Notes: a model not told the origin generated them from the sequence alone. Shown: positions 19,787-40,839, counted from the stretch's first letter. The stretch is 64,000 nt of DNA from Candidatus Cloacimonadota bacterium (GCA_018645365.1 JABGOP010000002.1:3409-67408); one strand, 5' to 3'. A program made the numbers and translations.

Positions 19787-19850
19787 CAGATTTGGAGGAT
19801 ATGTCGAAAAAATTGTGCTTTAATTTACAAAAAATGTTTTGGAGGAAATT

Positions 19851-21407
19851 ATGCAAAAACTAAAAATTTTATGGGTCGATGATGAAATTGAGCACTTAAA
19901 ACCTTTCGTCATTTTCCTTTCCGAAAAAGGGCACAAAGTGACGACTGTTTCGAACGGCTCAGATGCAATTAAATTGGTTTTAAAAAACCATTATGATTTG
20001 GTGCTTTTAGATGAAATGATGCCAGGAATGGACGGCTTGACAACCTTAAAAGAGATAAAAAGGATTAACAGTTCGTTGTCGGTCGTGATGGTGACAAAAA
20101 ATGAAGAAGAAGATTTGATGGAAGATGCGATAGCTGGTCAAATTGCCGATTATTTGATTAAACCGATAAATCCGAATCAAATTATTTTGACGATTAAAAA
20201 ATTATTTCAGACAAATGAAATTAAGAAAAATAAAATTGGTGCAGATTATGCCAGATTTTCATCAGAATTAAATGAAGATTTGGGTTCAAATCCAAACTGG
20301 GATGAGTGGTCACAAATTTATCAGAAATTGTGTGATTGGGATTCAAGATTGGATGATATTCGTGATGAAACAATGACGCATTTACATTTTTTGGAGAAAT
20401 TAAATTGCAACTCTGAATTTTCAAATTATGTAACGCGAAATTACAAAGATTGGCTAAGCACAGATGAACGACCAACTTTCTCATTTGACTTGATTTCTGA
20501 GTACGTAATTCCTGCAATTGAGCGTGAAAATACACCGGTTTATTTCATCGTTTTAGATTGTATGCGGCTAGATCAATACTACACGATTGAGCCTTTTTTG
20601 AAAGAACTATTTGATGTGGAAGTGGATTTATATTACTCCATTTTACCGACTGCTACTCCATATTCGCGAAATGCGATTTTTAGCGGTTTGATGCCAAATG
20701 ATATTGCTAAAAATTTCCCAAAATATTGGACAAATTCTGCAGACTTAGATACTAGCCGTAATCGTAACGAACATCAGCTTTTAGAGGAACATTTGAAAGA
20801 TTTGGGTCACGAAATAAACGAAAGTAAATATGTGAAAATTTTCAATATAGAAGAAGGCGATTACACTTTGCGTAAAATAGAATCTTGGAAAAATGAAAAA
20901 TTAATTGTTTTAGTGTATAATTTCTTAGATTTACTCGCACACCATCGTTCCCAAAATCAGGTTTTGAAGGAAGCAATTCCTGATGAAGAAGCACTTCGTC
21001 ATTTCACGAAACATTGGTTCACGCACTCCACATTTTATGAAACTTTAAAAAAAATTAAAGAACAAAATGCAACGGTTATTATCACAACTGATCACGGTTC
21101 AATACGCGTGAATAGGGCAAGTCAGCTAATTGGAAATAAGGAAACGACCTCATCCGTCCGCTACAAACAAGGCAAAAATTTAAAGATGCTAGATAAACAT
21201 TCATTTTATTTGGAAAATCCAGAAGAATATGGCCTTCCGAAGCAGAGCATTATAGAGAATTATGTGCTCGCAAAAGAAGATTATTACTTTGTTTATCCGA
21301 ATGCATTTCATAAATATATGAAACAATATGTTGGCACATTTCAGCACGGTGGAATTTCGATGGAAGAGATGATTTTGCCAATTTCAATTTGCAGACCCCA
21401 AAAATGA
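19851..21407 (+). CDS. porX: PorX-type response regulator: CheY-like receiver fused to a PglZ (alkaline-phosphatase superfamily) domain
   Basis: GGAGG 19841-19845 with a 5-nt spacer to ATG 19851 (track starts at TTG 19839). Receiver: ILWVDDE, LVLLDEMMPGMDG, DYLIKP. PglZ-type motifs: FIVLDCMRLDQ, LPTATPYSRNAIFSG, DLLAHH, ITTDHGS, FQHGGIS. Confidence 0.8.
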   Translation: MQKLKILWVDDEIEHLKPFVIFLSEKGHKVTTVSNGSDAIKLVLKNHYDLVLLDEMMPGMDGLTTLKEIKRINSSLSVVMVTKNEEEDLMEDAIAGQIADYLIKPINPNQIILTIKKLFQTNEIKKNKIGADYARFSSELNEDLGSNPNWDEWSQIYQKLCDWDSRLDDIRDETMTHLHFLEKLNCNSEFSNYVTRNYKDWLSTDERPTFSFDLISEYVIPAIERENTPVYFIVLDCMRLDQYYTIEPFLKELFDVEVDLYYSILPTATPYSRNAIFSGLMPNDIAKNFPKYWTNSADLDTSRNRNEHQLLEEHLKDLGHEINESKYVKIFNIEEGDYTLRKIESWKNEKLIVLVYNFLDLLAHHRSQNQVLKEAIPDEEALRHFTKHWFTHSTFYETLKKIKEQNATVIITTDHGSIRVNRASQLIGNKETTSSVRYKQGKNLKMLDKHSFYLENPEEYGLPKQSIIENYVLAKEDYYFVYPNAFHKYMKQYVGTFQHGGISMEEMILPISICRPQK

Positions 21408-21832
21408 AAAAAATAATCGAATTATTTTCCGAAAAAGATACTGAAAAGTTTGCTGAAAAATTAGCGTTACAATTAGAAAATGGCGATGTTATTGCACTTT
21501 ATGGCGAATTGGGTGCAGGTAAAACCTTTTTTACTCAAAAATTATGTTCATTTCTCAAAGTAACAGAAAATGTTTCTAGTCCAAGTTATGTTTTGATGAA
21601 CGAATATTCAGGGATTATGCCTATAATTCATCTTGATTTATATCGATTAAACTCGGAAGATGAAGTTTTGGAATTGGGCTTGTATGATGTAATAGAGTCT
21701 GGCTTAACGATTATCGAATGGCCAAAATTAGCTGAAAAGTTATTGACGAAAGATGTGATTAGAATTTACATTAATTATAAAAATAAGCATCGTGAAGCGA
21801 TAATCAAAACAGAAAAAGAAATTTTACTTTGA
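21404..21832 (+). CDS. tsaE: tRNA t6A37 biosynthesis ATPase TsaE (YjeE)
   Basis: ATGA overlap with the porX stop. P-loop GELGAGKTFFTQ and HLDLYRL motif. Confidence 0.85.
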   Translation: MKKIIELFSEKDTEKFAEKLALQLENGDVIALYGELGAGKTFFTQKLCSFLKVTENVSSPSYVLMNEYSGIMPIIHLDLYRLNSEDEVLELGLYDVIESGLTIIEWPKLAEKLLTKDVIRIYINYKNKHREAIIKTEKEILL

Positions 21833-22322: not shown

Positions 22323-22439
22323 ATGTTCAAGGTTAGGGTAATGTTAGTTTTGTTGGTTTTAGTGTCATCTTGTGTATTGTCCCCACCAGTTGGTAAACTC
22401 ACAGGTACGACTGGAGAAATTAATGAGCTCCTCGATTAA
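22323..22439 (+). CDS. Candidate 38-aa lipoprotein (below the ORF-track size cutoff)
   Basis: AGGAG with a 5-nt spacer, then ATG 22323. MFKVRVMLVLLVLVSSCVLSPPVGKLTGTTGEINELLD with lipobox V-S-S-C. Overlaps the wzx start by 17 nt. Confidence 0.45.
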   Translation: MFKVRVMLVLLVLVSSCVLSPPVGKLTGTTGEINELLD

Positions 22440-23892
22440 AAAACAGGCTACATATCTTTTTGTTGGAAGAATATTAGCATTTGTTTTTCAAATACTAATT
22501 CCAATTATATTTGTTAGATTATTGCCACTTGAAACTTATGGTGCGTATCAAAAAATAATCCTCATTTGTTTATTTTTTGCACCACTTTTGCAATTTGGAA
22601 TGAGTAATAGTTTATTGTATTTTTATCCAATAGTGTCTGGAAGACAAAAGCAATTGTTAACAAACACATTCTATTTCTTGTTGACTATTGGAATACTTTT
22701 TTCTGTTTTGTTGGTTTTCTTTAAAAACGAAGTCGCCTCATTGTTTAATACTCTTGAGTTTGTAGATTTAATTTATCCTTCAGCACTTTTCATACTTTTT
22801 TATTTAGTTTCTGAAATAATTGAAAAAATATTTATTGTCGAACAAAAAAATGAAATGCTTGCTATATATCATTTACTTAATCAAAGTTTTAGAGTAATAT
22901 TTCTTTTAGTTGCAATAATAATCTTTCGATCATTATCAGCTTTAATATGGGCATTAGTGTTTTTTGTTCTAATAAAAGTCATTTTTTTGTTTTTATATTT
23001 AACGATTAATTATGGTATGAAATTTTCATTGATTTCAATAAAAGACTTAAAGGAACAATTTAAATATGCTTTGCCAATGGGTATGGGTAAAATTATTGGT
23101 ACGATAGGAAAAAAAATTGATAAATTTATTTTGGCATCACTGTTGATATCTTCTGATTATGCAATTTATTCGGTTGCTAACTTTAAACTTCCTTTTGTAC
23201 AACTAATCTACACATCAATTGGAAGCGTAGCTTTACCAAAATTATCAAAAATACGTGATAATGGAATTGAAGAAATAAGACAAATATGGCATAAGATGAT
23301 TGTCACATATACCTTAATAACCATACCATTTCTTATATATTTTGAATTGGTAGCGAAAGAGTTCATATTGTTTTTGTATACCGAAAAATATATTGAGAGT
23401 ATTACTCCGTTTAGATTTTTTTTATTAATCATGTTATTTCAGATGTTAAGTTACGGAACAATTTTGAAAGCATATGCCAAAACGAGATTTATTTTCAAAT
23501 CTAATCTAATAGTAATGGTTATTGGATTTCCAATATCTCTTAGTCTTATTAAGATGATGGGGACAGTGGGCGGAGCTATTTCTGCTCTGATAATTTTTGG
23601 CTTGAATGCGATTATACAAGTCTACAAAACAAAGCAAATCTTGAAATTAAAATTGAGTGATTTATTGCCATGGGAGCAGTTAATGAAAATAAGTATTATT
23701 TCGTTAATACCTGTGCCTTTGATTTTTTTAGCGATTAAATTTTCTTTTAATAGATTTTTGTTTTTAGTGGTAACGACACTTTTGTATTTTTTAAGCATTC
23801 TCATTATTTTTACAAAAATGAAGATGATTGACATTAATATTAAAAAGAAAAAAATTAATTTTCCACTTGTTGAAGGCTTATATGCAAAATAA
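22423..23892 (+). CDS. wzx: Polysaccharide/oligosaccharide flippase (Wzx, MOP superfamily)
   Basis: ATG 22423 preferred (MSSSIKKQATYLFVGRILAFVFQ...). ~12 TM segments, typical Wzx N-terminus. Confidence 0.8.
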   Translation: MSSSIKKQATYLFVGRILAFVFQILIPIIFVRLLPLETYGAYQKIILICLFFAPLLQFGMSNSLLYFYPIVSGRQKQLLTNTFYFLLTIGILFSVLLVFFKNEVASLFNTLEFVDLIYPSALFILFYLVSEIIEKIFIVEQKNEMLAIYHLLNQSFRVIFLLVAIIIFRSLSALIWALVFFVLIKVIFLFLYLTINYGMKFSLISIKDLKEQFKYALPMGMGKIIGTIGKKIDKFILASLLISSDYAIYSVANFKLPFVQLIYTSIGSVALPKLSKIRDNGIEEIRQIWHKMIVTYTLITIPFLIYFELVAKEFILFLYTEKYIESITPFRFFLLIMLFQMLSYGTILKAYAKTRFIFKSNLIVMVIGFPISLSLIKMMGTVGGAISALIIFGLNAIIQVYKTKQILKLKLSDLLPWEQLMKISIISLIPVPLIFLAIKFSFNRFLFLVVTTLLYFLSILIIFTKMKMIDINIKKKKINFPLVEGLYAK

Positions 23893-25282
23893 AATTCAAT
23901 CAATATTTTGTTGTATGAATGAAGAAAAAATACGATATTGTCAATGGAAAAGTTCTTTGAACTTAACAAATTCATTTGCTGGAAAAACTGATTTTGACAT
24001 ATTGGTAGACAGAAAAGATATTAACAAACTGCTCTCTCTCTTAATTAATAAGGGATTTAAGCGTAGGCAAAGCACATATGATAAAACCTATCATTCGATG
24101 GAAGATTATATTGGATTTGATTCTGCAACAGGTAGGTTGATTCATTTTCATTTGCATTATACACTAATCATGGGAAAGAAATTAACTAAAAATATTCGTA
24201 TACCAATAGAAAAATTTGTGTTAGATAATACTATGATTGATAACAATTTTGGAATAAAAATAATACAACCAGAGATTGAATTATTTTTATTATCTTTTAG
24301 GATTATGCTAAAGACAAAAATCGGTAAATCATTAATCCTAACGATGTTAAAACACAAAAGATATCTTCCCCAAAATATTATTAATGAATACAATTATTTA
24401 TTTGCGAAAATAGATTTTGACGAATTTGAAAAAATAGGTAATTTATACTTTATGGAATTCTACAAAGATGTCAAATTATTGGTCAATAATTTGAATATAA
24501 AACTAAATATTTTTAAGTTTTTCAAGATAAAAAAACGAATTGAGCGAAAATTACTGAAATATAAAAGATTTGATTCGCTTGAGAAAAAATGTGAATATCA
24601 AATACGGAAATTTTCCTCAAAGAATAGCAGAAACTTTTTGTCTTCAGGCGGTTTATCAATTGCATTTATTGGTGCAGATGGTTCTGGCAAGTCTACAATT
24701 ACGGAAGAAATAACGCATTGGTTAAATTGGAAATTGTCTGTTAGAAGAATATATATGGGGATTCCTAAAAAAGACAAAATGTGTATTATCCTTGGATATT
24801 TAGGTAATATAGCAAGAAAGCTACAATTATTAAAATTTGAAAAGTACATTTTTAATTTTAGGTGGCTTTATGTATCATACTATAGAAAGAAAAATTTTTA
24901 TCAATCACAAAAGTTTAAAAACCAAGGATATATTATTGTTTTTGATAGATACCCGTTAGATTTTTTCAGTAAAATGGAAAAACCTATGGATGGCGAACGA
25001 ATTGATTCTACTTCAATACTGAGCTGTAAGGAAAAGAAAAACTATCAACAAATTAAACTACCCGACGAAATGATTTGTTTGAGAGTCACATTACAGCAGT
25101 CAATAAATAGGAAGAAAGAACATCAGTTAAGTTTAATACAAGGAACAATTAAAAATAAAATTGAAGCAATAGATTCTTTAGTTAATGCAAATATTAGCAA
25201 GAAAATAAAAGTAATAAATTCTGATTGTGATTTAAATTCAAAGATATTAAAAATTAAAAAAATAATTTGGGATATGTTATAA
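23882..25282 (+). CDS. Fusion protein: uncharacterised nucleotidyltransferase-fold domain + thymidylate-kinase-like P-loop kinase domain (copy 1)
   Basis: ATG 23882 preferred. N-domain has KTDFDILVDRKD...GFKRR...IHFHLHY (D-x-D NTase-like). C-domain has IAFIGADGSGKSTI...VFDRYPLD (Tmk-like P-loop and DRY). Confidence 0.6.
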   Translation: MQNKIQSIFCCMNEEKIRYCQWKSSLNLTNSFAGKTDFDILVDRKDINKLLSLLINKGFKRRQSTYDKTYHSMEDYIGFDSATGRLIHFHLHYTLIMGKKLTKNIRIPIEKFVLDNTMIDNNFGIKIIQPEIELFLLSFRIMLKTKIGKSLILTMLKHKRYLPQNIINEYNYLFAKIDFDEFEKIGNLYFMEFYKDVKLLVNNLNIKLNIFKFFKIKKRIERKLLKYKRFDSLEKKCEYQIRKFSSKNSRNFLSSGGLSIAFIGADGSGKSTITEEITHWLNWKLSVRRIYMGIPKKDKMCIILGYLGNIARKLQLLKFEKYIFNFRWLYVSYYRKKNFYQSQKFKNQGYIIVFDRYPLDFFSKMEKPMDGERIDSTSILSCKEKKNYQQIKLPDEMICLRVTLQQSINRKKEHQLSLIQGTIKNKIEAIDSLVNANISKKIKVINSDCDLNSKILKIKKIIWDML

Positions 25283-25284
25283 TA

Positions 25285-26046
25285 ATGAAAAGAATAGAAA
25301 TTACTGGATTACCTGGAAGTGGAAAATCGACATTATTGCCTTTAATTAAAGATGGCTTTAAAGAACTTGGAGCAATTCTAACAGAAAAAGATTTAGTAGA
25401 TAGATTGATTAAAAAAAAGTATTTTATGTTTTCACCAATTTTCAGATTATTAACAATGTCTTTCAGAAATAAACTATTTAATAAACTATATAAATTTAAT
25501 ATTAAATCCAATAAATTAGAACCAAAATACATTCAGTTATTGAGTTTTATAAATGATTTAAATTCACAAAGAAGAATTTCAAATAATGAAGCGGTAAAAA
25601 TTATGAGTTGGTTTTATAATTTGATATCCGTGATGTCTTTAGCAGAAAAATTTATACATAAGCAAGAATACTTTTTGATAGACGAATCTTTTGTACATAG
25701 AGCTCAATCACTATTTATTTCAAAAGAAGAACCAGTTTTACGAAAAGAGATGCTAAAGAAATATCTAAAAATAATAGATGCACCCGAATACCTATTATTT
25801 ATTGAGGCGAATATTGAGGTTTGTATTTCAAGACTTAAAAAACGAGGATTCCCAGTCAGATTTTTAAAATACACAGCTGAAGAAATTAATCTTGTATTTC
25901 AGAATTCAGAAAAATTATTATTTAATGTCAGTGAAACATTTACGGAGAGTAATACAAAAATTATTAAGTTGAATAATAATTTAACGCATGAAGATTATTT
26001 TAGTATTAAGGAACAAATATGGAACGAACTAAAAGAAAAAAAATGA
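25285..26046 (+). CDS. Stand-alone P-loop kinase-like protein
   Basis: Walker A ITGLPGSGKSTLL, Walker-B-like YFLIDESF, RLKKRG. No closer family recognised. Confidence 0.5.
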   Translation: MKRIEITGLPGSGKSTLLPLIKDGFKELGAILTEKDLVDRLIKKKYFMFSPIFRLLTMSFRNKLFNKLYKFNIKSNKLEPKYIQLLSFINDLNSQRRISNNEAVKIMSWFYNLISVMSLAEKFIHKQEYFLIDESFVHRAQSLFISKEEPVLRKEMLKKYLKIIDAPEYLLFIEANIEVCISRLKKRGFPVRFLKYTAEEINLVFQNSEKLLFNVSETFTESNTKIIKLNNNLTHEDYFSIKEQIWNELKEKK

Positions 26047-27143
26047 AATTGTTATTTTATGATTTTGAAATTCCGTATTTGCTTAACGACTCAAACTATC
26101 CTGTTGGAGGGGCATGCGTTAGACAATATGCTTTTTCTATTGGTTTAAGCTTTTTAGGGCAAGATGTAGGTGTTTTAACTTGGAAAGGCGCAAATAAATT
26201 TGTGAAATCACAACAGCCATTTAAATTGGTAGAGAGCTACTCGATAGAAAGAGGCATTAGGGTTATTAGATGGATATACTATAGATTTCCCCAATTATTA
26301 CGAGCTATTTTAAATTTTAAACCAGATTTTATTTTTCAAAAATGTGCTGGGGCAAATGTTGGAATTATGGCAATAGTTGGGGTATTACTCAACAAACCTT
26401 TTATCTATATTTCTGCAAATGATACTGATGCAGATGATAGATACAAAAGAAATTTAAATTTCATCAATATGATTTTTTATAAATTTGGATTAAAATTATC
26501 ACAGGGAATAATTTGCCAAAATGAATATCAATACAAACAATTTAAAAAAAAATTTCCCCAAAAAAGAATTACACTGATTAAAAACCCTTTTGTTATGAAA
26601 GAAAAAATTGGAATTAACCCCAAAGCAAAAAGAAAATACATTGCTTGGGTTGGAGTATTTCAACATCAAAAAAACCTGTCTGCTCTTTATCGTATTGCCA
26701 ATCAAAATCTTGATTTAGAATTTCATGTTGCTGGCAAAAATAGTTCAAGTATCGATGGGAATACAAAAAATGCATTAGATAAATTGCGAGCATTACCTAA
26801 TGTTAAATTTGTAGGTTACTTATCTCGTACTGACATTTTAGGCTTTTTATCAAAAGCTTATGCTTTATTAAATACATCTCATTTTGAGGGATTTTCAAAC
26901 ACTTTTTTAGAATCTTTTGCAGTTGGAACTCCAATAATAAGTTTAAATGTAAACCCCGACAACATTATTACAAAATATGATTTAGGAGATATGATTAGCT
27001 TAGAAAGTAATTCACATGTTTTTAAGAAGTTATTAGATTCTTATGATTATCTAAAAGAAGGAATTAAAATCCAAAAATATTTAACTTCAAATCATGACTA
27101 TATTAATATTGCCAATCAATTTTTAGATTTTCTGGAAGATTAA
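26043..27143 (+). CDS. Glycosyltransferase, GT-B fold (GT4-like)
   Basis: ATGA overlap. C-terminal EGFSNTFLESFAVGTPII (E-x7-E region). Confidence 0.8.
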   Translation: MKLLFYDFEIPYLLNDSNYPVGGACVRQYAFSIGLSFLGQDVGVLTWKGANKFVKSQQPFKLVESYSIERGIRVIRWIYYRFPQLLRAILNFKPDFIFQKCAGANVGIMAIVGVLLNKPFIYISANDTDADDRYKRNLNFINMIFYKFGLKLSQGIICQNEYQYKQFKKKFPQKRITLIKNPFVMKEKIGINPKAKRKYIAWVGVFQHQKNLSALYRIANQNLDLEFHVAGKNSSSIDGNTKNALDKLRALPNVKFVGYLSRTDILGFLSKAYALLNTSHFEGFSNTFLESFAVGTPIISLNVNPDNIITKYDLGDMISLESNSHVFKKLLDSYDYLKEGIKIQKYLTSNHDYINIANQFLDFLED

Positions 27144-27144
27144 T

Positions 27145-28458
27145 ATGATGACATACATATTGTTAATAATGTTTTTGGGGTTTATCTATATTACCATTAG
27201 ATTATTTCAAAGTGAAGTAGCTTTTAATTTAACAAGATTTAATGAATTTATTTTGTATGTATTAATTTTTCTTAGAATCATTAGTATTTATAAAGTGCCA
27301 TTTATACCTATTGCTCCCGATAATATTTTTTATGGTTTTATTTTTTTAATATTCGTTGTTTTCAATAAATTATATTCGGCTGCATTTAACAAACAAATAA
27401 AAGTCATACTACTTACCTATGTATTTTATCAACTATTGAAAATGTTCACAAGCTATTTAGAAATAGGAAGAACTGAAATCTTGCAATGGTGGATTTTACG
27501 GGACTACTTTCTGTTAGTATCATTTGTTATTACCATTAATCGACAAAATTTTTATAAGTATTTAAAATGGTTTACGATAGTTCTTTCAATATCGATGTTA
27601 TTTGGTTTACTTATTTATTTTATAGGAGAACCATTTGCTTCATTAAGATTAAAAATTATCAATAACCCTACGATGCATTATTACGGTAAAGGAGAGCGAG
27701 TAGTTGGACTGAATTATAGTATTTTTTCATTTGCCTACCCATTAACTATTTTGCCAATTTTGCTTCTTACTATTTATAAAATATCATCAAAACACTATTT
27801 GATTATTTTGATGGTATTTTCTTTTTTAGGTCTTATTTTAAATGGTGAAAGAATTAGTTTAGCTTTAGCATCTTTTGTAATGTTATTATTAATAAATAGA
27901 TGGTTTAATGCAGGCAGGAAAATATTTTTGTTAATATTTTTGGTGTTAGCAATAATTTTATTTCAATCGGTGATGCTTTCTTCTGATAAAAACCAAGATA
28001 CAATAGGGGCAGTAAGTAGAATACAAAGCACAACATCTGATGAGTTATCCATTCGTTTTTATAAACAATATGCAGGCTTAGTTACGGTATTTAAACATCC
28101 ATTAACGGGTGGGACGAATAATAATTTTAAGAATGAGACATATGCTTTGTATGGAGGTGTGGGTAATTATTCGCATAATGCTATAATTAATATCGGAATG
28201 TATGCTGGATTTGGAGGTTGGTTATTATTTATGTTTTTTTTCTCAAATATTTTGTCACAAATAAAAAAGATGTCTTTAAAATCAAAAATTATAAATCAAG
28301 GAGTTGTTTTTTCTTTTGCAAGTTTAATGGGGGTATCTCTATTTCATAATGATGGTATTTTTGAAGGAGAAACAGTTTCTTTGATATTGTTAGGTTTTAT
28401 ATTAGGTAGTTCAAAATATTGTAATAATAAACTTAATTTAAACACAAGAGATGATTAA
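27145..28458 (+). CDS. O-antigen polymerase/ligase-like membrane protein (Wzy-like)
   Basis: 437 aa, ~10-12 TM segments, one large loop, extremely AT-rich codons. Assignment is by architecture and context only. Confidence 0.6.
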   Translation: MMTYILLIMFLGFIYITIRLFQSEVAFNLTRFNEFILYVLIFLRIISIYKVPFIPIAPDNIFYGFIFLIFVVFNKLYSAAFNKQIKVILLTYVFYQLLKMFTSYLEIGRTEILQWWILRDYFLLVSFVITINRQNFYKYLKWFTIVLSISMLFGLLIYFIGEPFASLRLKIINNPTMHYYGKGERVVGLNYSIFSFAYPLTILPILLLTIYKISSKHYLIILMVFSFLGLILNGERISLALASFVMLLLINRWFNAGRKIFLLIFLVLAIILFQSVMLSSDKNQDTIGAVSRIQSTTSDELSIRFYKQYAGLVTVFKHPLTGGTNNNFKNETYALYGGVGNYSHNAIINIGMYAGFGGWLLFMFFFSNILSQIKKMSLKSKIINQGVVFSFASLMGVSLFHNDGIFEGETVSLILLGFILGSSKYCNNKLNLNTRDD

Positions 28459-28461
28459 GCT

Positions 28462-29610
28462 ATGATAATAAGTATTAATTTTTTTGGGATATTATTTTTT
28501 GCAGTATTAGTTTATTGGTTAATTCCGATACAAAGATATAGAGTGTTATTTCTTTCATTTATAAGTTTATTTTTTGTTGGTATTTATGATATTAATGCAA
28601 CTATTCTAATTATAAGTTTATCAATTTTTAGTTATTCAATTAGCAGTTTGATACAAGCTAATAAAAATAATTATTTTTTTCATAAACTGGGGATTATAGG
28701 GTTAATTGCCATCTTAGTCATTTTTAAATATTTAGGATTATTAACGGAAACGATAAATCATTTAAGTGAATTTGTATCATTCTTTCCGCAAATTCGTATA
28801 AAACACATTTTATTGCCATTGGGAATATCATACATTATCTTTAAGCATGTCAGTTATATTACAGATGTTTATTGGAAAGTGATAAAAAAAGGAGATTTTC
28901 TTGATTTTTTATGTTATAGTTCTCTATTTACAATTTTTGTAGCGGGTCCAATTGAAAGATTTGAAAGTTTTTCGCCACAAATATTAAAATTACAACGATT
29001 TGAAAATTCTAACCTGGCATTTTTCTTCCGAAGGCTTATTTATGGGTTATTCAAAAAATTAGTGATTGCTAACTGGATTGGATATTTTATTAGTCCATAT
29101 TTACAAAATTACAACACAGAAAACATATTAGTAAAGATGTTGGTGTTATGTGGATTTTCAATGCAAATATATACAGATTTTTCGGGTTATAGCGATATAG
29201 CAATTGGAAGTTCTAGATTATTCGGACTTAGAATAAAGGAAAATTTTAATTGGCCATATATTCAATCAAATATTAGCGAATTTTGGAGACATTGGCATAT
29301 TTCGCTTTATAAATGGTTCAGAGATTATCTATACATCCCATTAGGTGGTTCCCGCAAAGGATCAAAGAGGACAATGCTTAATGTGATAATTGTATTTATG
29401 TTGTGTGGTCTTTGGCATGGAGCTTCTTGGAATTTTTTATTTTGGGGTCTTTGGCATGGAGTAGGAATATCAATTTATCAAGTTTGGCAAAATTTAAAAA
29501 AGAATAATGATAAATTACAAAAAATTACATGTGGATCGGTGTATAAATGCTTTAGTACTTTGATCACATTCTTATTTGTAACGATAGGTTGGTGGTGGTG
29601 GATAAAATAA
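28462..29610 (+). CDS. MBOAT-family membrane O-acyltransferase (AlgI/DltB-like)
   Basis: Signature SEFWRHWHISLYKWFRDYLYIPLGGSRKG with the conserved His. 382 aa, shorter than typical. Confidence 0.8.
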   Translation: MIISINFFGILFFAVLVYWLIPIQRYRVLFLSFISLFFVGIYDINATILIISLSIFSYSISSLIQANKNNYFFHKLGIIGLIAILVIFKYLGLLTETINHLSEFVSFFPQIRIKHILLPLGISYIIFKHVSYITDVYWKVIKKGDFLDFLCYSSLFTIFVAGPIERFESFSPQILKLQRFENSNLAFFFRRLIYGLFKKLVIANWIGYFISPYLQNYNTENILVKMLVLCGFSMQIYTDFSGYSDIAIGSSRLFGLRIKENFNWPYIQSNISEFWRHWHISLYKWFRDYLYIPLGGSRKGSKRTMLNVIIVFMLCGLWHGASWNFLFWGLWHGVGISIYQVWQNLKKNNDKLQKITCGSVYKCFSTLITFLFVTIGWWWWIK

Positions 29611-30563
29611 AAAAGTTTATTTTGTTAGTAATTGCGATATTTGTTTCTTTCGTCATTACGGAGGTATTCATTCGAGTTGTAATTGGTTACCCTGTTTCGG
29701 GTGAATTGATGAAGATTATAGGTATCTCTGGCCCTAAATCTTATGGAAAACTTTATGAACCTCATTCAAAATATTGGAATGTTGAAGGTGGAAATAATGT
29801 TTTTGAAAGAAATAATGTTGGGCTTCCAGGATTAGATATTATTACTTCAGATTCAACTGGTTATGTTTTAGTATTGGGTTCTTCTGTGGTTGAGGCGCAA
29901 CAAGTTCCTCGAAACCAAATGGCTACATCAGTTTTTCATGACTTGCTTACGAAAGAAAACGATAAATATCAGATTGTGAATTTAGGGACGAGTGGAGTAA
30001 ATCCTTATCAGCAATGGTTTAGGACATGTTATTTTGAAAGTCTGTATGAGCCGAGTGTAGTTATCATGGTATTAGATGAACATTCTTATGAATATTTATC
30101 GAGGATAAAAAGTCAAAAACTTAATTTTGATTTACCTAATCGATTTGGAGAAGAACACGACATTAGTTTAACTAAACAAATATCGCATTTCTTGAAAAAT
30201 AACCTTTCAACTCTCAATATTCTTTTTCAAAACATACATAATTTACAACCGACAAAAAAACAAGATAATAAAAAATATGCAAAATATGATGTTGATATCT
30301 CATTGGAAAAATTAGAAATTTGTATTTCTGAATTTCAAAAAAAATACAAAGAAAAGTTTATTTTAATATCTATTTTAAATGATAAAGAAATAAATAATGA
30401 AATTCAAAAAATATGTAATAATAAAAAACTAAATTATTTTATTGACGATTCTACACAAAGTTCAATAAATAGATTTCACGGTACAGGTCATCTTAATGTA
30501 CGAGGAAATAGAGGATTAGGAGTTCTGTTGCATGAAGTTTTCAAAAAAAGTTTTATTGAATAA
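29589..30563 (+). CDS. Membrane-anchored DltD/AlgJ/AlgX-like (SGNH-like) partner of the MBOAT
   Basis: N-terminal TM FILLVIAIFVSFVITEVFI, LVLGSSVVE block, C-terminal GTGHLNVRGNRGLG. Only non-ATG starts are available (TTG 29589 or GTG 29592-29598). Confidence 0.55.
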   Translation: MVVVDKIKKFILLVIAIFVSFVITEVFIRVVIGYPVSGELMKIIGISGPKSYGKLYEPHSKYWNVEGGNNVFERNNVGLPGLDIITSDSTGYVLVLGSSVVEAQQVPRNQMATSVFHDLLTKENDKYQIVNLGTSGVNPYQQWFRTCYFESLYEPSVVIMVLDEHSYEYLSRIKSQKLNFDLPNRFGEEHDISLTKQISHFLKNNLSTLNILFQNIHNLQPTKKQDNKKYAKYDVDISLEKLEICISEFQKKYKEKFILISILNDKEINNEIQKICNNKKLNYFIDDSTQSSINRFHGTGHLNVRGNRGLGVLLHEVFKKSFIE

Positions 30564-35019: not shown

Positions 35020-36030
35020 ATGAAAATTTATGAGAATAGATCTTTCGTCGCTTCATTAGTATTTACAACTATAGTTATTGTTTTTATTTTTAAATATATC
35101 TCATTAAATGATATTTTTAATGCAGTAAACAGTGTACAGATAAAGTATATTTTAGTTGGTTTTATATTTCATATTCTTGCTTATTTTTTTAGGACATTAG
35201 TTTTTTATTCCTTTTTAAAAAAAGATAGAATTAGTTTTTTTTACTTACTATATATTCATTTTATTCAAAATTTTTATGTACATATAGTACCAGCAAGTTT
35301 GGGAGAGTTTTCTTTTCCATTGCTTTTAAAAAAACGAATTGATATGGCAAAAAGCTTTTCAGTATTAGTGATTTCAAGAATTATTTCATTAGCTCTTATA
35401 TTTCTCCTTTTTTTAACTTCAGGAATTTATTTATTTAATTTTCATAGAATTATTGCTTTAAGAAATAATATTTTTACTTTATTAATTTGTAGTGGCTTAA
35501 CTTTATTAATAATATTATTAGTTGTTGCTTTCAGAATAAAATACAAGATTTATATTCAAAATGTTATAAAAAACAATAAAAGTTTTAATAAAATTAACAA
35601 TAAACTTATTAATATTTACATAAAAATAAAAAGTGAAATGATTCAACTTAAAAATGTAAGATTTATATTTAAAATTATTCTTTATTCTCTACTTGCATTA
35701 CTATGTTCTATGCTGTTTTCAATTATTCTACTTAAAGGTATTAATATTGAATTAAACATATTTCAAGTAATCTTTGTATCTTCCATTGGAGTTGCTTTTT
35801 TGATATTACCAATTAAGAGTATTGGAGGATTTGGCACTACCGAAGGAAGTTGGGCAATTGGTTTAATGTTGTTTGGAATAACAAAACAAACTGCTCTTCA
35901 AGCGGGTTTTGTTGTTCATATTTTTGCTTTATTTAATGTGATCTTTCTTTTTCTAATAGGAATCATTTTCAACACGATTAATAATAGAAAGATGGGGTTT
36001 ATTAATAAAAATGAGGATAATGAAACTTAA
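35020..36030 (+). CDS. UPF0104/LPG-synthase-TM (flippase-like) membrane protein
   Basis: 336 aa, ~8 TM segments. Pattern IKYILVGFIFHILAYFFRTL...PASLGEFSFPLLLKK resembles this family. Confidence 0.55.
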   Translation: MKIYENRSFVASLVFTTIVIVFIFKYISLNDIFNAVNSVQIKYILVGFIFHILAYFFRTLVFYSFLKKDRISFFYLLYIHFIQNFYVHIVPASLGEFSFPLLLKKRIDMAKSFSVLVISRIISLALIFLLFLTSGIYLFNFHRIIALRNNIFTLLICSGLTLLIILLVVAFRIKYKIYIQNVIKNNKSFNKINNKLINIYIKIKSEMIQLKNVRFIFKIILYSLLALLCSMLFSIILLKGINIELNIFQVIFVSSIGVAFLILPIKSIGGFGTTEGSWAIGLMLFGITKQTALQAGFVVHIFALFNVIFLFLIGIIFNTINNRKMGFINKNEDNET

Positions 36031-37315
36031 TAAATTGTCTCATAAACAGTTGATAGTTGCTATAATCTTAATTGCATTTATCATTCGTTTGGGTTTTGGT
36101 ATATTTATCTTCCAACAAACAGGAACCTTAGGTTACTGTGATGATTGGGATTATATTTCATATGCAAGAAACATTATAACTCAGGGTATTTTTGTGCCAG
36201 ATTTATCTAGCTTTCAAAGTAATAGTCATCTTATCGGTCCGGGATACCCAATGATAGTAGCCTTATCATTAATAATTTTTGGTGATACATATCTGCCAAT
36301 AGTTATATTAAATGCAATAATAAGTACATTAATTTGCATTCTTATTTACTTAATAGGTAAACAAGTTTTTAATAGTAGAGTTGGGTTGTTAGCATCATCA
36401 TGGAGTACTTTCTATGTTTTATTTATAAGGTATGTTCCAAGAGTTCTTAAAGAAATTTGGGTACCCTTTCTTTTTGTATTAATAATTCTAATGTTTATAA
36501 ATATATCAAAACAAAAAAGGATATCTTATGTAAACTTTATTATGAGCTTACTTTTTTCTTTACTTATTCATATGGATGAAAGGTTTTTTATCTATTTTCC
36601 AGTTTTAGTAATTTGCTTTTTGTTCTTTGATAAATTAAATTGGAAAAATGGTTTTAGGAAAGCTATAATATTTTGCTTTACTGTAATTTTGTTAATGATC
36701 CCATGGCTCATAAGAAATTATCAGGTTTATGAAAAACCCGTAATAATAACTGAACGCACTTCATCATTTACAGATAAAATTTTTGATTATCACGAAAAAA
36801 TTAATGCCCCTAGTAAAGCTATGAAAGTTCCACTACAATTGTATGAAGCTGTTACAGACTCAATATTATCAGAAAAAACTGTAAGGAGTTCTGGTAGTAG
36901 AATTAAGGGAATTAAAAGGGGGATATCATTAGGGTATACTCCGCACAAATTTAGCGCATCTGAGAGGTATTGGGCAGAATTTAAAGAATTTTGGCGCCCG
37001 GTAAGATTTACTGCAGGTTATGTCGGTCGAGGTTTTCGCTTTGAAGGTCCATCTTGGTCTTTAGCACATAATTTGTCTTTAGGGTTAACTTATGGCATAC
37101 TCTTACCATTTTTTCTGTTAGGATGTTTTTTTATAATTAAGTATAAAAATAAATATGGTATATTCTTTATAATTCTTATTATTACACATACTTTCCTGCA
37201 TGTGGTATTGATGTGGGTTAGAAATCGGTATAGGATTCCAATTGACGCTTTAATTATAATAATCGCTTTTTATGGTTTGCAAAATGCTATAATGATTATT
37301 TCCATGAAAAAATAA
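36011..37315 (+). CDS. GT-C fold glycosyltransferase (ArnT/PMT_2, GT39/GT83-like)
   Basis: 434 aa polytopic protein. N-terminal LIVAIILIAFIIRLGFG...DDWDYISYA loop typical of ArnT-like enzymes. Alternative ATG at 36020. Confidence 0.6.
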   Translation: MRIMKLNKLSHKQLIVAIILIAFIIRLGFGIFIFQQTGTLGYCDDWDYISYARNIITQGIFVPDLSSFQSNSHLIGPGYPMIVALSLIIFGDTYLPIVILNAIISTLICILIYLIGKQVFNSRVGLLASSWSTFYVLFIRYVPRVLKEIWVPFLFVLIILMFINISKQKRISYVNFIMSLLFSLLIHMDERFFIYFPVLVICFLFFDKLNWKNGFRKAIIFCFTVILLMIPWLIRNYQVYEKPVIITERTSSFTDKIFDYHEKINAPSKAMKVPLQLYEAVTDSILSEKTVRSSGSRIKGIKRGISLGYTPHKFSASERYWAEFKEFWRPVRFTAGYVGRGFRFEGPSWSLAHNLSLGLTYGILLPFFLLGCFFIIKYKNKYGIFFIILIITHTFLHVVLMWVRNRYRIPIDALIIIIAFYGLQNAIMIISMKK

Positions 37316-37316
37316 A

Positions 37317-38399
37317 ATGAAAATATTATACATTATAGAATCTTTGAAATCAGGAGGAAAAGAGAGGCGACTTCTCGAGTTAATTGATGGTTTAAAGAAA
37401 GATAAAAATTTTACATGTGCAATCATTATCTTAAATGATCAGATACACTATAAAAAAGCACATCAAAATGGATGTGAAATATTCACTGTAAAAAAAGATA
37501 ATTATTTCTCAATTTCAATGCAAATTTTTAATATTTGTAAAACTTTCCGTCCAACTATTATTCACAGTTGGGCAGCAAATGCAACGATTTATTCACTATA
37601 TACAGTAAAAAGATTAAAATTGAAACTAATAGATTCGAGTATTTCTACTGCACCATTAGAAGTGAAAAAAAAATCCAAAATAAACTTAATTAATCAAATT
37701 ATTTTTAAGTTTGCAGATATGATAAATGCAAATTCGCAAGTTGGTTTGAATTCATATTATGCACCAAAAAATAAAAGTATTTGTATTCATAACGGTTTTA
37801 ATTTTGATAGAATAAAAAACCTTGTTTCAGAAACTGAAATTAGGGAAAAGTTTTCTGTTACTACAAAAAAAGTGATTGCTATGGTTGCATCGTTTTCTGA
37901 AAAGAAAGATTACGCAACTTACATTAAATCGGCATTGCAGATTTTAGAAAATAATAATGATGTTACTTTTTTATGCGTTGGATCCGGTGATTATACTAAA
38001 TATCAACTTCTTATTCCCAAAGAATACGAAGCAAAAATAAAGTTTTTAGGGAAACAAAGTGATGTAGAATTAATTATGAATATTTGTGATTTTACTGTAC
38101 TTTCCACCTATACAGAAGGAATTTCAAATTCCATTATGGAATCAATGGCACTTGGTATTCCTGTAATTGCAACTGATGGCGGAGGTACATCAGAAATTAT
38201 TGCGGATTATGAAAATGGCATATTAATTCCACCCAAATCACCACAAATTCTAACAGAAAAAATAAATGATTTATTGAATAATTCAGAAAAAGTTGAATAC
38301 CTTGGTAAGAATGCGATTCGACAAATTAAAGAGAATTTTTCGATTGACAAAATGATTGATAAATTTATTTTACTTTACAAGCGGGTTTTAGTGAAATGA
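37317..38399 (+). CDS. Glycosyltransferase, GT-B fold (GT4-like)
   Basis: 360 aa. YTEGISNSIMESMALGIPVIATDGGG motif. Confidence 0.8.
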   Translation: MKILYIIESLKSGGKERRLLELIDGLKKDKNFTCAIIILNDQIHYKKAHQNGCEIFTVKKDNYFSISMQIFNICKTFRPTIIHSWAANATIYSLYTVKRLKLKLIDSSISTAPLEVKKKSKINLINQIIFKFADMINANSQVGLNSYYAPKNKSICIHNGFNFDRIKNLVSETEIREKFSVTTKKVIAMVASFSEKKDYATYIKSALQILENNNDVTFLCVGSGDYTKYQLLIPKEYEAKIKFLGKQSDVELIMNICDFTVLSTYTEGISNSIMESMALGIPVIATDGGGTSEIIADYENGILIPPKSPQILTEKINDLLNNSEKVEYLGKNAIRQIKENFSIDKMIDKFILLYKRVLVK

Positions 38400-39829
38400 A
38401 AAAAAATAAAAATTATATTCTTACTATATTTATGGGTTGTGTGCTGTCATTTGTTTTTGTTGGATGTGTGATAGACTCTACTGTTACCTACACAGTTTCA
38501 GGCAATATCGAATTTTACGATACGGAAGGAAACATAACTAACCCAATAATAAGTGGAACAGTAAAACTATTCCAACCTACTTTGTTTTGTGATTCTCTTT
38601 CTACTTTACAAAATAAATACCCCGTAGGTGCGGAGATAAACCCCATTCTATTGATGGAGCATCGGCTAGCTGGTAATCCATTGGCGTCGGGTACAATAAA
38701 TTCAAATGGGGATTTCACATTAATGGAATTATTGGAAGGTGAATATTTATTGCTTTACTCTGTTGAAGGATATGGTTGGCACAAGCAAGTTTGCAATGTG
38801 GCATCGGATATGTCGTTGCACCTCAAAATGCGTGAGACGATAGTTTGTGATGAAAATTTTAACACAATTAATGGAACTGTCGTGTGGGGTCCTAACCAAC
38901 ACATTATAGTTACCGAAGATGTTTTGATAATGAATGAAGCATCATTGACAATACTAGAAAATACAATTATAGAATTCGGATTTGGTTACTGCAAACTAGA
39001 AGTAATTGGTAATTTTTTTGTGGAAGGTTCGAGTGAATTTCCTGTGATATTTACATCAGCGGAAGAAAATCCAGCCGAAAATGATTGGAATGCACTATAT
39101 AATAATTCAGAAAATTGTTTAATAAATAATTGTATTGTTGAATGGTCATACTATGGGTTTTATAATTTAGGAGAAGCTAATTTAAATCAATTAGTTATTA
39201 AAAATTGTAGCTCAAATGGGATTAATCTTAATGGAAATTCAGCGACTATTGAAAATACTACTATTTTTGGTTGTGAAAATGGAGTTTGGGCTTATGGTCT
39301 AGATGATGGTGTTTTTGGTGGAAATATATCAAACACATTGATCTTTGATAATAATACAAGTGGCATAGAACTAACTAGTTCATCTCCGTTAATAAATAAC
39401 TGTTTTTTTAGTGAAAATGATAAACATATTTTCATTTATTATTCTTGTCCTAAAATTGAATATTGTGCTTTTGAAAATAGTAGAACATACTCTATTTATT
39501 CTCAGCGTGAGGCAGGAATAGAAGGTACAATTGAAATAAAGTACTGTGATTTTACAGACGAGAATACATTAATTTATTGCCGAAGAAGTGCAGATATTAT
39601 TGCTAATCACAATAATTTTTATGTTAGTAATACTTTTGTTTTTGAACTTATTTATTACAATGGTAGTAATTTTATTAATGCGCAAAATAACTGGTGGGGA
39701 ACTTCTTCCGAAACAGAAATACAAAATTTAATTTGGGATGAATCAGATGAGCCTGGTGGGTATGATGCCGGAACAGTAGATTATTCAAGTTGGGAATATC
39801 ATGAAATTGAAGATGCGGGGCCACAATAA
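38396..39829 (+). CDS. Lipoprotein with carboxypeptidase-regulatory-like N-domain and right-handed parallel beta-helix repeats
   Basis: ATGA overlap. Signal/lipobox MKKNKNYILTIFMGCVLSFVFVGC. Repeated N-x-[CI]-x-[VI]-x-x-N/G turns (LINNCIVEWS, VIKNCSSNGINLNG, IENTTIFGCENGVWA, ISNTLIFDNNTSGIEL, LINNCFFSEN). Confidence 0.65.
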   Translation: MKKNKNYILTIFMGCVLSFVFVGCVIDSTVTYTVSGNIEFYDTEGNITNPIISGTVKLFQPTLFCDSLSTLQNKYPVGAEINPILLMEHRLAGNPLASGTINSNGDFTLMELLEGEYLLLYSVEGYGWHKQVCNVASDMSLHLKMRETIVCDENFNTINGTVVWGPNQHIIVTEDVLIMNEASLTILENTIIEFGFGYCKLEVIGNFFVEGSSEFPVIFTSAEENPAENDWNALYNNSENCLINNCIVEWSYYGFYNLGEANLNQLVIKNCSSNGINLNGNSATIENTTIFGCENGVWAYGLDDGVFGGNISNTLIFDNNTSGIELTSSSPLINNCFFSENDKHIFIYYSCPKIEYCAFENSRTYSIYSQREAGIEGTIEIKYCDFTDENTLIYCRRSADIIANHNNFYVSNTFVFELIYYNGSNFINAQNNWWGTSSETEIQNLIWDESDEPGGYDAGTVDYSSWEYHEIEDAGPQ

Positions 39830-40839
39830 TGAAATATAAAATTGTCACGAAATTAGCTAAAAATAGATGGTCATCATTTGTGGAAAATCACACGAATGGC
39901 AATATTTTCCAGACGCCAGAAATGTATAAAGTATATCAAAAAACGAAAAATTATGAGCCAATCTTTTTGGCAGTTATTGATAATGACGACACAATATTAG
40001 GTGTGATGTTGGCGGTTATCCAAAAAGAATATAGTGGGATTATAGGTAGTCTTACAGCACGTTCAATTATTTTTGGTGGTCCATTGATTAAAGATGAAAA
40101 TATTGAAGTGTTAGATGTGGTTTTAAAAGAATATAGTACTATTGCAAAAAGCAAAGCAATTTATTCACAATTTAGAAATTTTTGGGATTGGCAAGAACCT
40201 AAAAATATTTTTTCAAAAAATGGATTTGAATACGAAGAACATCTGAATATTTTGGTAGATTTAAATAAAAGCGAAGATGAATTGTGGAAAGATGTAAAAA
40301 AATCAAGAAAAGAAGGTATTAGGAAAGCAATTAGGGATGATTTGCAATTTAGTGTTGCAAACAATGATGAAATTTTGCCGACATTTTATGGTCTATTGAA
40401 AGAAACTTATTCTAATGCAAAATTGCCATATCCTGATTTTGATTTTTTTAATAATTTACAGAAATTAATCCCAACAAATACAATTAAGTATTTTACACTC
40501 AAAAAAGAAAATAATATTATTATTGCTTTGCTCGCGTATGTTTACAAAGGGTGTCTTTCAGCGTTTTATATAGGAATAAATCGTGAAGAAAAATATTTCA
40601 AAATGCGCCCAGTAGATCTTTTTTATTGGGAATTATTAAAATGGGGAAGTGAAAATAATTGTGAAATATATGATTGGTTGGGTGCTGGGAAACCAGATAA
40701 AGAATATGGAGTTAGAAAATTTAAACTTCAATTTGGTGGAAAAATTGTTAATTATGGCAGATTTGAGAAAATACACAAACCTATTTTGCTCAAAATAGCA
40801 AAATTTGGATTTATGTTTTGGAAAGGACTAAAAAGATGA
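39829..40839 (+). CDS. FemAB-like / Acetyltransf_6-type GNAT-fold aminoacyl- or acyl-transferase
   Basis: TAATG junction. 336 aa. W..FV....NGNIFQTPEMYKVY N-terminus and a duplicated GNAT-like layout typical of FemAB-related proteins in EPS loci. Confidence 0.55.
   Translation: MKYKIVTKLAKNRWSSFVENHTNGNIFQTPEMYKVYQKTKNYEPIFLAVIDNDDTILGVMLAVIQKEYSGIIGSLTARSIIFGGPLIKDENIEVLDVVLKEYSTIAKSKAIYSQFRNFWDWQEPKNIFSKNGFEYEEHLNILVDLNKSEDELWKDVKKSRKEGIRKAIRDDLQFSVANNDEILPTFYGLLKETYSNAKLPYPDFDFFNNLQKLIPTNTIKYFTLKKENNIIIALLAYVYKGCLSAFYIGINREEKYFKMRPVDLFYWELLKWGSENNCEIYDWLGAGKPDKEYGVRKFKLQFGGKIVNYGRFEKIHKPILLKIAKFGFMFWKGLKR

Follow-up and report, generated by a model that had tools for sequence, protein, structure and literature searches.

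A fused nucleotidyltransferase-fold and thymidylate-kinase-like protein, its kinase-like partner and their possible role in the decoration of bacterial glycans

Introduction

In the gene cluster of the lasso peptide pseudomycoidin, the kinase PsmK phosphorylates the C-terminal serine of the peptide up to three times, and PsmN, a member of a family known as "uncharacterised nucleotidyltransferases" whose DxD motif is essential, is needed in vivo for one or two hexoses to be placed on the phosphate (PMC6993621). In a family of phosphonate gene clusters, Ppm, the phosphoenolpyruvate (PEP) mutase, has a thymidylate kinase gene and a gene of the PF14907 family as its neighbours (10.1101/2021.04.07.438883). 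Here we describe a gene in which both types of domain are joined in one protein (fusion gene 1, positions 23882-25282, + strand), together with its partner gene G3, in a stretch of 64,000 nucleotides from Candidatus Cloacimonadota bacterium (GCA_018645365.1, JABGOP010000002.1:3409-67408). This whole stretch is referred to as the window, and positions are counted from its first letter. The gene pair had been pointed out in an earlier note made from the sequence alone.

Several other described systems resemble the fusion 1 protein in part. Tmk (PF02223, TIGR00041) has the fold and the core motifs of its C-terminal half, i.e., a GxDGxGKS P-loop with an acidic residue, a DRY motif and a lid arginine, whereas fusion 1 differs in its MDGP loop, its fused nucleotidyltransferase (NTase) domain, its paralogous partner and its glycan-operon setting. 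NTP_transf_5 (PF14907), which includes the protein of a second fusion gene in the window (fusion gene 2), shares the NTase fold, the DxD and HxH strands and, in the fusion 2 family, the fusion to a domain like thymidylate kinase (TMK); fusion 1, however, scores under the gathering score of PF14907 and would be a distant sister subfamily with a partner gene of its own. The nearest solved structures to the N-terminal domain, LnuA and ANT(2'')-Ia, are small-molecule NTases that adenylylate sugar-like hydroxyls, but the similarity is weak (E 0.04-0.12, template modelling (TM) score 0.5-0.56, 7-13% identity), and there is neither a sequence match nor a resistance context. Bifunctional synthases of 3'-phosphoadenosine 5'-phosphosulfate (PAPS), in which ATP sulfurylase is joined to adenosine 5'-phosphosulfate (APS) kinase (including NodPQ-type copies), also fuse nucleotidyl transfer to a P-loop kinase, and the genes described here often lie near sulfotransferases; yet neither canonical domain is homologous to fusion 1, and most loci, including the window, lack sulfotransferases. 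Phosphate-linked decoration of glycans is achieved by LicD/fukutin-type phosphotransferases and by the MeOPN pathway of Campylobacter jejuni (Cj1415-Cj1418), through NTase-fold transferases or through the logic of a kinase, a nucleotidyltransferase and a P-loop kinase. These, however, are different protein families, and the usual CDP-donor genes were not found in our census of neighbouring genes.

Annotation pipelines name fusion 1-type proteins "hypothetical", "thymidylate kinase" or "nucleotidyltransferase family protein". The domains, and even their architecture, can already be seen in databases, and the protein is therefore not of a new kind. Our literature search found no paper on either fusion family, and its leads were confined to the phosphonate inventory and the papers on PsmN; as far as we found in the literature, the partner gene, the fusions to Wzx, Wzy and glycosyltransferases (GTs), and the association with sulfotransferases and APH-type (aminoglycoside/choline-kinase-like) kinases have not been described before. 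We tentatively propose, as a possibility to which we give slightly less than even weight, that fusion 1 and G3 make up a two-gene, three-domain phosphotransfer module that decorates glycans of the Wzx/Wzy pathway, with a product of the anionic, phosphodiester type.

Results and Discussion

Fusion gene 1 is genuine and widespread

Fusion gene 1 is a single uninterrupted open reading frame (ORF) of 466 codons in which an NTase-fold domain is followed by a TMK-like P-loop kinase domain. A TTG at 23828 could lengthen the ORF; the starts of homologues match the ATG at 23882. The protein is basic (pI 9.8) and 100% identical to a hypothetical protein of 466 amino acids (aa) from a Candidatus Cloacimonetes metagenome-assembled genome (MAG). 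Full-length relatives (460-510 aa) make up 54 database clusters, and a scan of one genome per species, with a closer alignment of 13 relatives as the query, found at least 422 species genomes that encode one. The family is spread over about 13 phyla. Carriers in the scan belong to the Bacteroidota, Chloroflexota, Gemmatimonadota, Myxococcota, Desulfobacterota, Nitrospirota, Acidobacteriota, Actinomycetota, Bacillota, Thermotogota, and Alpha- and Gammaproteobacteria, and the database clusters add Spirochaetales and Vibrio chagasii, besides the Cloacimonetes source of the window. Named carriers include V. chagasii (P0037/L001) and Natroniella sulfidigena AHT3 (L068).

A profile of the N-terminal domain matched 2306 representative proteins (1239 at E <= 1e-30) in a set of 1.84 billion, clustered at 50% identity. 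Nearly all of the best 150 of these 2306 matches are 460-540 aa long, and the domain therefore appears to be almost always fused to a kinase. The earlier note had mentioned stand-alone genes of the NTP_transf_5 type as frequent neighbours of kinase-like genes in exopolysaccharide loci; in the present subfamily the two are joined in nearly every case. The earlier note had raised the possibility of a frameshift that joined two genes. Since the fusion is kept at full length in the 54 clusters and in hundreds of genomes, and the ORF is continuous, a frameshift or chimera artefact was ruled out. Gemmatimonadota loci L045, L055, L057, L064, L069, L072, and L078 carry two full-length fusion paralogues a few kb apart, along with weaker G3-like ORFs of ~225-258 aa.

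The N-terminal domain is predicted to have an NTase fold

The N-terminal domain (aa 1-250; 23882-24631, + strand) is predicted to be a Pol-beta-type NTase fold followed by a helical bundle. As the earlier note had remarked, it bears a D-x-D signature: GKTDFD (23981-23998, + strand) corresponds to the G-x-x-D-x-D metal-binding motif of the fold and carries D37 and D39, and HFHLHY (24143-24160, + strand) forms the H88-x-H90 strand, whose counterpart in fusion 2 is IHLHE. In an alignment of 36 full-length relatives of fusion 1 (alignment A1), K23, D37, D39, H88, H90, K103, and R140 are invariant, and S24, G34, D80, E133, and K144 are near-invariant (G34 and D80 at >=90%). By alignment alone, D80 is a candidate for the third carboxylate, as it lies ~40 residues past the DxD like D86 of ANT(2'')-Ia; H88/H90 are the alternative. 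The NTase-fold domain of fusion 1 is apparently catalytically competent.

Against Pfam NTP_transf_5 (PF14907), fusion 1 scores 19.8 bits, under the gathering score of 31.2. PF14907 was matched at E <= 0.01 by 11 of the 36 relatives, and one relative (P0008) has a precomputed PF14907 hit. An AlphaFold model of the domain alone (248 residues) reached a predicted local distance difference test score (pLDDT) of 93.5. When this model was compared with the PDB by Foldseek, the leading matches were mainly NTase-fold proteins: LnuA (probability 0.98, TM 0.56), ANT(2'')-Ia, Cid1, Trf4, OAS, and Pol beta. A sequence profile of the domain, searched against the PDB, found nothing under E 0.6. Because the weak structural matches are mainly of the NTase fold, because only those 11 relatives match PF14907, and because hhalign relates the domain to fusion 2 with a probability of just 43%, we regard it, on the strength of the model, as a Pol-beta-type NTase fold that is probably a distant relative of PF14907.

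The C-terminal domain resembles thymidylate kinase but is not a true dTMP kinase

The C-terminal domain (aa 251-466; 24632-25282, + strand) is a P-loop kinase domain of the thymidylate-kinase superfamily. Its Walker A motif, GADGSGKST (24671-24697, + strand), contributes the invariant G264, D266, G267, G269, and K270. The DRYP sequence (24944-24955), which corresponds to the "DRY" motif of TMK, contains the invariant R356 and is followed by a family-specific M-D-G-P/E loop with the invariant D370 (24944-24997 for both, + strand). G293 and R410 complete the set of invariant residues in this domain. The P-loop, the DRY arginine R356 and the lid arginine R410 are retained and align with TMK. Against Pfam Thymidylate_kin (PF02223), fusion 1 scores 17.2 bits, under the gathering score of 27, and 25 of the 36 relatives match that family. 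The family profile retrieved solved thymidylate kinases from PDB sequences at E 1e-13 over the whole domain. A full-length AlphaFold model, built on the alignment of 36 relatives, had a pLDDT of 93 and a predicted TM score (pTM) of 0.90, which implies, for the model, two domains in a fixed mutual arrangement; its best Foldseek matches in the PDB are TMKs, with Staphylococcus aureus TMK at E 1e-8 (TM ~0.69, normalised to the target). These results bear out what the earlier note had said of the P-loop and the DRYP motif.

The resemblance does not extend to the substrate site. In the dTMP kinase equivalog TIGR00041, fusion 1 scores 20.3 bits and fusion 2 37.5 bits against a cut-off of 83.25. The base-reading segment that follows DRY in TMK is swapped for the different, invariant M-D-G-P loop, and an arginine matching that of the TMK "ANR" motif is present in close relatives only. 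A true dTMP kinase was ruled out by this score and by the substrate-site residues, and the domain is best described, as far as sequence can tell, as a TMK-superfamily kinase other than dTMP kinase. The pairing that the earlier note had set against its own reading, a true dTMP kinase with a known antibiotic NTase, was therefore not what we found, the best structural match of the NTase half being at E 0.04. Both of its domain assignments hold at the level of fold or superfamily. Its "hydrophobic insert", on the other hand, was a misreading: the segment aligns, without a large gap, with the alpha2-alpha3 helices of TMK that bind nucleoside monophosphate (NMP). A membrane-spanning insert was ruled out, the highest 19-residue Kyte-Doolittle hydropathy in fusion 1 being 1.26, with no membrane segment.

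G3 is a conserved partner and a paralogue of the TMK-like domain

G3 (25285-26046, + strand; 253 aa) begins two bases past fusion gene 1 and encodes an NMP-kinase-like P-loop protein with GLPGSGKST (25306-25332), DESF and a lid of R183/R187/R192. In the first three contexts examined, a small G3 homologue stood right after the fusion gene. A word-indexed search with G3 returned only two homologues, and homologues were instead sought with iterated hidden Markov models (HMMs) over simple six-frame ORF calls of the fetched loci. Counted per fusion gene, a G3 homologue was the immediate neighbour of 58 genes, 52 times downstream in the same orientation and 6 times convergent. Another 17 genes have one elsewhere within 10 kb, 8 have none, and for six more the downstream sequence was too short to judge. 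Counted per locus, G3 is adjacent in 62/84, within 10 kb in 9/84, and absent in 13/84. Where fusion gene and G3 overlap, the overlap is often the same 16 nucleotides (nt), in related loci.

The earlier note had called this gene kinase-like, and the relation proved to be closer than that. The G3 profile matched adenylate and UMP-CMP kinases in the PDB at ~E 1e-8 over its C-terminal half, and hhalign aligned it with the TMK-like domain of the fusion family at a probability of 97.5% (E 6e-12), with DEGF where the fusion has DRYP. By sequence comparison, G3 is a conserved partner and a paralogue of the TMK-like domain. The module therefore combines a single domain of the NTase fold with two NMP-kinase-like paralogues, both intact as P-loop kinases and inherited together with it.

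Two variations concern G3 itself. In three Anaerolineae loci (L022 3007-4932, L023 3885-5885, and L030 7714-9699) G3 is fused to an APH domain, which implies that the two work in consecutive steps. In loci L006, L009, L021, L040, L056, L071, and L089, the fusion gene is directly preceded by a gene of ~265 aa resembling GT-A enzymes (with a weak match to PF03407, Nucleotid_trans) and directly followed by Wzy. G3 is never adjacent in this layout; it lies 3-8 kb downstream in L021, L071, and L089, and none turned up in the remaining four, for several of which the available downstream stretch is short.

Considering that nucleotide kinases are the nearest relatives of both G3 and the TMK-like domain, and that the P-loop aspartate and DRY motif of TMK are retained, the two might conceivably be genuine NMP and nucleoside diphosphate (NDP) kinases that recycle UMP, CMP or dTMP or build an unusual nucleotide on the spot, from which the NTase would make a nucleotide-activated donor. 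Some anomeric sugar kinases, such as NahK and AmgK, are of the APH type, and the APH-type neighbours described below could be of this kind. However, the TMK-like domain falls far under the dTMP-kinase cut-off, its base-reading segment is replaced, and we know of no sugar-1-phosphate nucleotidylyltransferase with a Pol-beta fold. The covalent fusions to Wzx and Wzy described below are also hard to square with a soluble salvage enzyme, and we consider local nucleotide handling quite unlikely.

The module is tied to repeat-unit assembly

In the window, the fusion 1 start overlaps the stop of a Wzx-type flippase gene (22372-23892, + strand; Polysacc_synt_3, E 7e-30) by 11 nt, and G3 is followed by genes, all on the + strand, for a GT4 glycosyltransferase (26019-27143), a Wzy-type polymerase (27145-28458) and an MBOAT protein. 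The position inside a glycan locus that the earlier note had described is thus confirmed, and it holds for relatives as well. Some fusion proteins have an additional N-terminal domain, which is a Wzx flippase in P0072 (1025 aa), a Wzy-type polymerase in P0068 (915 aa), a GT4 in L074 and a GT2 in L044. Other ORFs of 700-1050 aa in Gemmatimonadota and Myxococcota loci were rejected as mostly over-extended by the ORF caller, L074 and L044 being the only real N-terminal fusions there.

We also made a census of the module's neighbours, two genes to each side, which comprised 124 upstream and 113 downstream proteins. The upstream neighbours include Sulfotransfer_3 (17), Wzy_C (15), Wzx (13), and polysaccharide deacetylase (10), and those downstream GT4 (~32), Wzy_C (12), and APH-type kinases (10). 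The usual cytidylyl- and nucleotidylyl-transferase genes that supply CDP donors were not among the top families of this census. A Spirochaetales MAG and a metagenomic contig (L004 and L088) share the Wzx-fusion-G3 order of the window. The module is therefore physically and genetically tied to the assembly of repeat units, by its fusions to Wzx, Wzy and GTs and by its neighbours.

The NTase and kinases could instead be a regulatory, defence or toxin-like pair that has merely come to lie in variable polysaccharide islands. Glycan loci are variable regions, this one has a low G+C content, some pairs lie outside glycan loci (L003, L005), and G3 gives weak PADLOC matches (VakA, 21.6 bits; mad8). 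Neither fusion protein, however, matches any PADLOC model, and a passenger would explain neither the shared operons and overlapping stop and start codons with Wzx and GT genes in many phyla nor the covalent fusions to Wzx, Wzy, GT2 and GT4. Such a non-glycan role is highly improbable.

Sulfotransferases are frequent companions

Using HMMs built from the loci, we found sulfotransferase-family genes within 10 kb in 31/84 loci, from at least 5 phyla. APH genes are present in 15/84 loci, all 15 of which also carry sulfotransferases. In Chloroflexota the order, with up to six sulfotransferases (ST), is ST-ST-ST-ST-Wzy-ST-fusion-G3-APH-GT4-ST, and loci of this phylum with four to six sulfotransferase paralogues in addition to APH, GT4 and Wzy are L011, L013, L015, L016, L018, L020, L027, L028, L039, L041, and L053. 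They look like heavily sulfated exopolysaccharide loci of Anaerolineae and Caldilineae. Among the sampled loci that contain sulfotransferases, GGDEF proteins are found repeatedly farther out in the flanks.

Since a PAPS synthase likewise combines nucleotidyl transfer with a P-loop kinase, the fusion could, in principle, be a non-canonical synthase of PAPS or a PAPS-like donor: the NTase would adenylylate sulfate or another oxyanion, the fused kinase would pull this step by phosphorylating the product, and the donor would feed the sulfotransferases, of which up to six paralogues flank the module. Such a synthase would agree with the absence of APS-kinase and ATP-sulfurylase families among the 25 families listed, of 129, for the wider flanks of 18 sulfotransferase loci (families of single occurrence being partly shown). 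However, 53/84 loci, including the whole 30-kb locus of the window, that of Vibrio chagasii and L088, have no recognisable sulfotransferase, and no ATP-sulfurylase or APS-kinase family is among the Pfam and NCBIfam matches of fusion 1, G3 and the 36 relatives. G3 and the fusions to Wzx, Wzy and GTs would also be left unexplained, and we hold this explanation to be very unlikely. Because the loci without a sulfotransferase share the same invariant residues, sulfation is treated here as a decoration that often accompanies the module, not as its purpose.

A second, divergent fusion in the same locus

Fusion gene 2 (42973-44706, + strand; 577 aa) has the same architecture and scores over the gathering scores of both families (NTP_transf_5, 50 bits; Thymidylate_kin, 34.2 bits). 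BLASTP between the two fusion proteins was not significant, and the hhalign match mentioned above covers only the DxD-HxH core; these results ruled out recent duplication. The fusion 2 family has 63 full-length homologues (555-607 aa), which NCBI names "nucleotidyltransferase family protein" and JGI "thymidylate kinase", and genes of this type have a GT4 gene on one side and a GT1-type gene on the other, with stop and start codons that overlap, and lack a G3 partner. Since fusion 2 is undetectable by BLASTP with fusion 1 and has a family and a context of its own, the sequences suggest two old, separate lineages of the same fusion within one locus. A block of FemAB-like, DUF354, GT4, fusion 2 and GT1 genes is syntenic between the window (39829-45744) and a Bacteroidales MAG contig (L085 4085-10079). 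This synteny points to a sub-cluster, mobile or conserved, that serves a single feature of the glycan, perhaps an aminoacylated or peptide-bridged sugar.

A possible phosphotransfer reaction

For the proposed phosphotransfer module, we infer the following substrate, sequence of steps and product. The module would act on the cytoplasmic side, beside the membrane machinery, and its target would be the lipid-linked repeat unit or a substituent meant for it. G3 and the TMK-like domain would first phosphorylate, with ATP, an acceptor that already bears a phosphate; a phosphorylated acceptor is suggested because the DRY arginine, which in TMK clamps the acceptor phosphate, is invariant here. The NTase-fold domain would then, by two-metal chemistry at D37, D39 and probably D80, join the phosphate to a nucleotidyl or glycosyl group, and the phosphodiester-linked, anionic decoration would be complete before flipping by Wzx. 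Of the earlier note's reading, the domains, the genuine fusion and the glycan link are supported, whereas the specific order of phosphorylation and then nucleotidylylation is still conjectural.

PsmK and PsmN are the closest experimental precedent. Like the module, they combine a P-loop kinase with an NTase-family protein bearing a DxD, which is essential in PsmN; in their case a group ends up on a phosphate. Phyre2 modelling found limited homology of PsmN to the ANT(2'') structures 5cfs and 4xje (PMC6993621), of which 5cfs is also among the best matches of our N-terminal domain. Unlike the module, they act on a peptide serine and are separate proteins, and the kinase is HPr-kinase-like, not TMK-like. 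By analogy, this precedent suggests sugar capping of a phosphate rather than nucleotidylylation, and the pairing of a P-loop kinase with this type of NTase would appear to recur in peptide, phosphonate and glycan contexts.

Several points weigh against the phosphotransfer proposal. By default, enzymes of both kinase folds would be expected to act on a nucleotide. A minority of the pairs, including the Bacteroidia loci L003 and L005, lie beyond recognisable glycan loci, and the fusion 2 family is without G3, such that a scheme of two kinases cannot be general for the architecture. The Foldseek search of the N-terminal domain against the PDB gave no match at E <= 0.001 and thus no significant solved relative. 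PsmN was compared with our domain through a shared structural neighbour, the DxD and a kinase partner, not through family membership, and PsmN was inactive in vitro, with its true substrate not established (PMC11912497).

The two paralogous kinases may also be read in another way. NMP-kinase-type enzymes have phosphate acceptors, and a hydroxyl kinase, either APH or one of central metabolism, could make an X-phosphate that G3 and the TMK-like domain extend to the di- and triphosphate; the NTase would then move X-P from X-PPP to a hydroxyl of the glycan with release of pyrophosphate (PPi), yielding a phosphodiester independently of nucleotides. NTase-fold enzymes indeed take triphosphate donors. 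The APH-type hydroxyl kinase fused to or beside G3, and the lack of the usual cytidylyl- and nucleotidylyl-transferases among the top neighbour families, fit such a route. PsmK, moreover, yields mono-, di- and triphosphorylated peptide, and the PsmN-dependent products keep one phosphate plus hexose (PMC6993621), while the TMK and PF14907 pair beside PEP mutase would fit the activation of a phosphonate. This route is, however, entirely inferential; APH is found in only 15/84 loci, all with sulfotransferases, and proteins of the fusion 2 family contain one kinase domain only. To our knowledge, there is no precedent for an NTase-fold enzyme that uses a non-nucleotide triphosphate. We judge the route unlikely. 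The same judgement, that it is rather improbable, applies to its general version, in which a P-loop kinase and an NTP_transf_5-type NTase form a nucleotide-independent route to phosphodiesters: a sugar, peptide or small molecule that bears a phosphate or phosphonate would be raised to the triphosphate and used like a nucleoside triphosphate. If true, the same logic would cover the module described here, the lasso-peptide pair PsmK/PsmN and the TMK and PF14907 pair by PEP mutase.

The surrounding locus

The fusion 1 region is part of a glycan locus of ~30 kb that reaches ~52.6 kb of the window. Its G+C content is 24-31%, vs 33-38% in the flanks (the low-G+C span being given as 22000-46000), which would fit a polysaccharide island that has been exchanged horizontally or is distinct in composition. 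Within the locus, an LPG_synthase_TM-family membrane protein is followed by an overlapping PMT_2 (GT-C-type) glycosyltransferase (35020-37315), a pair that hints at an extra periplasmic glycosylation step. Three ORFs have no Pfam match: one of 324 aa right behind the MBOAT gene (29589-30563), one of 477 aa with an N-terminal hydrophobic segment and a cysteine that has, by eye, the look of a lipoprotein signal (38396-39829), and one of 268 aa with an HDVDR motif (46871-47677). Just beyond the locus, a response-regulator receiver domain is fused to PglZ (alkaline-phosphatase-like; 19839-21407), with tsaE directly downstream (21389-21832).

Significance

The module is common, with at least 422 species genomes and >2000 clusters at 50% identity, and it lies in the core of polysaccharide operons of the Wzx/Wzy type. 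Two of its carriers, Vibrio chagasii and Natroniella sulfidigena, are cultivable, and it could be tested in them. Knowledge of its reaction would probably bring to light a glycan decoration not yet described or a new activation route, with a bearing on the charge of capsules and exopolysaccharides, on recognition by phages and the immune system, and on sulfated or phosphorylated biopolymers, and it could also explain the chemistry of PsmN-type enzymes.

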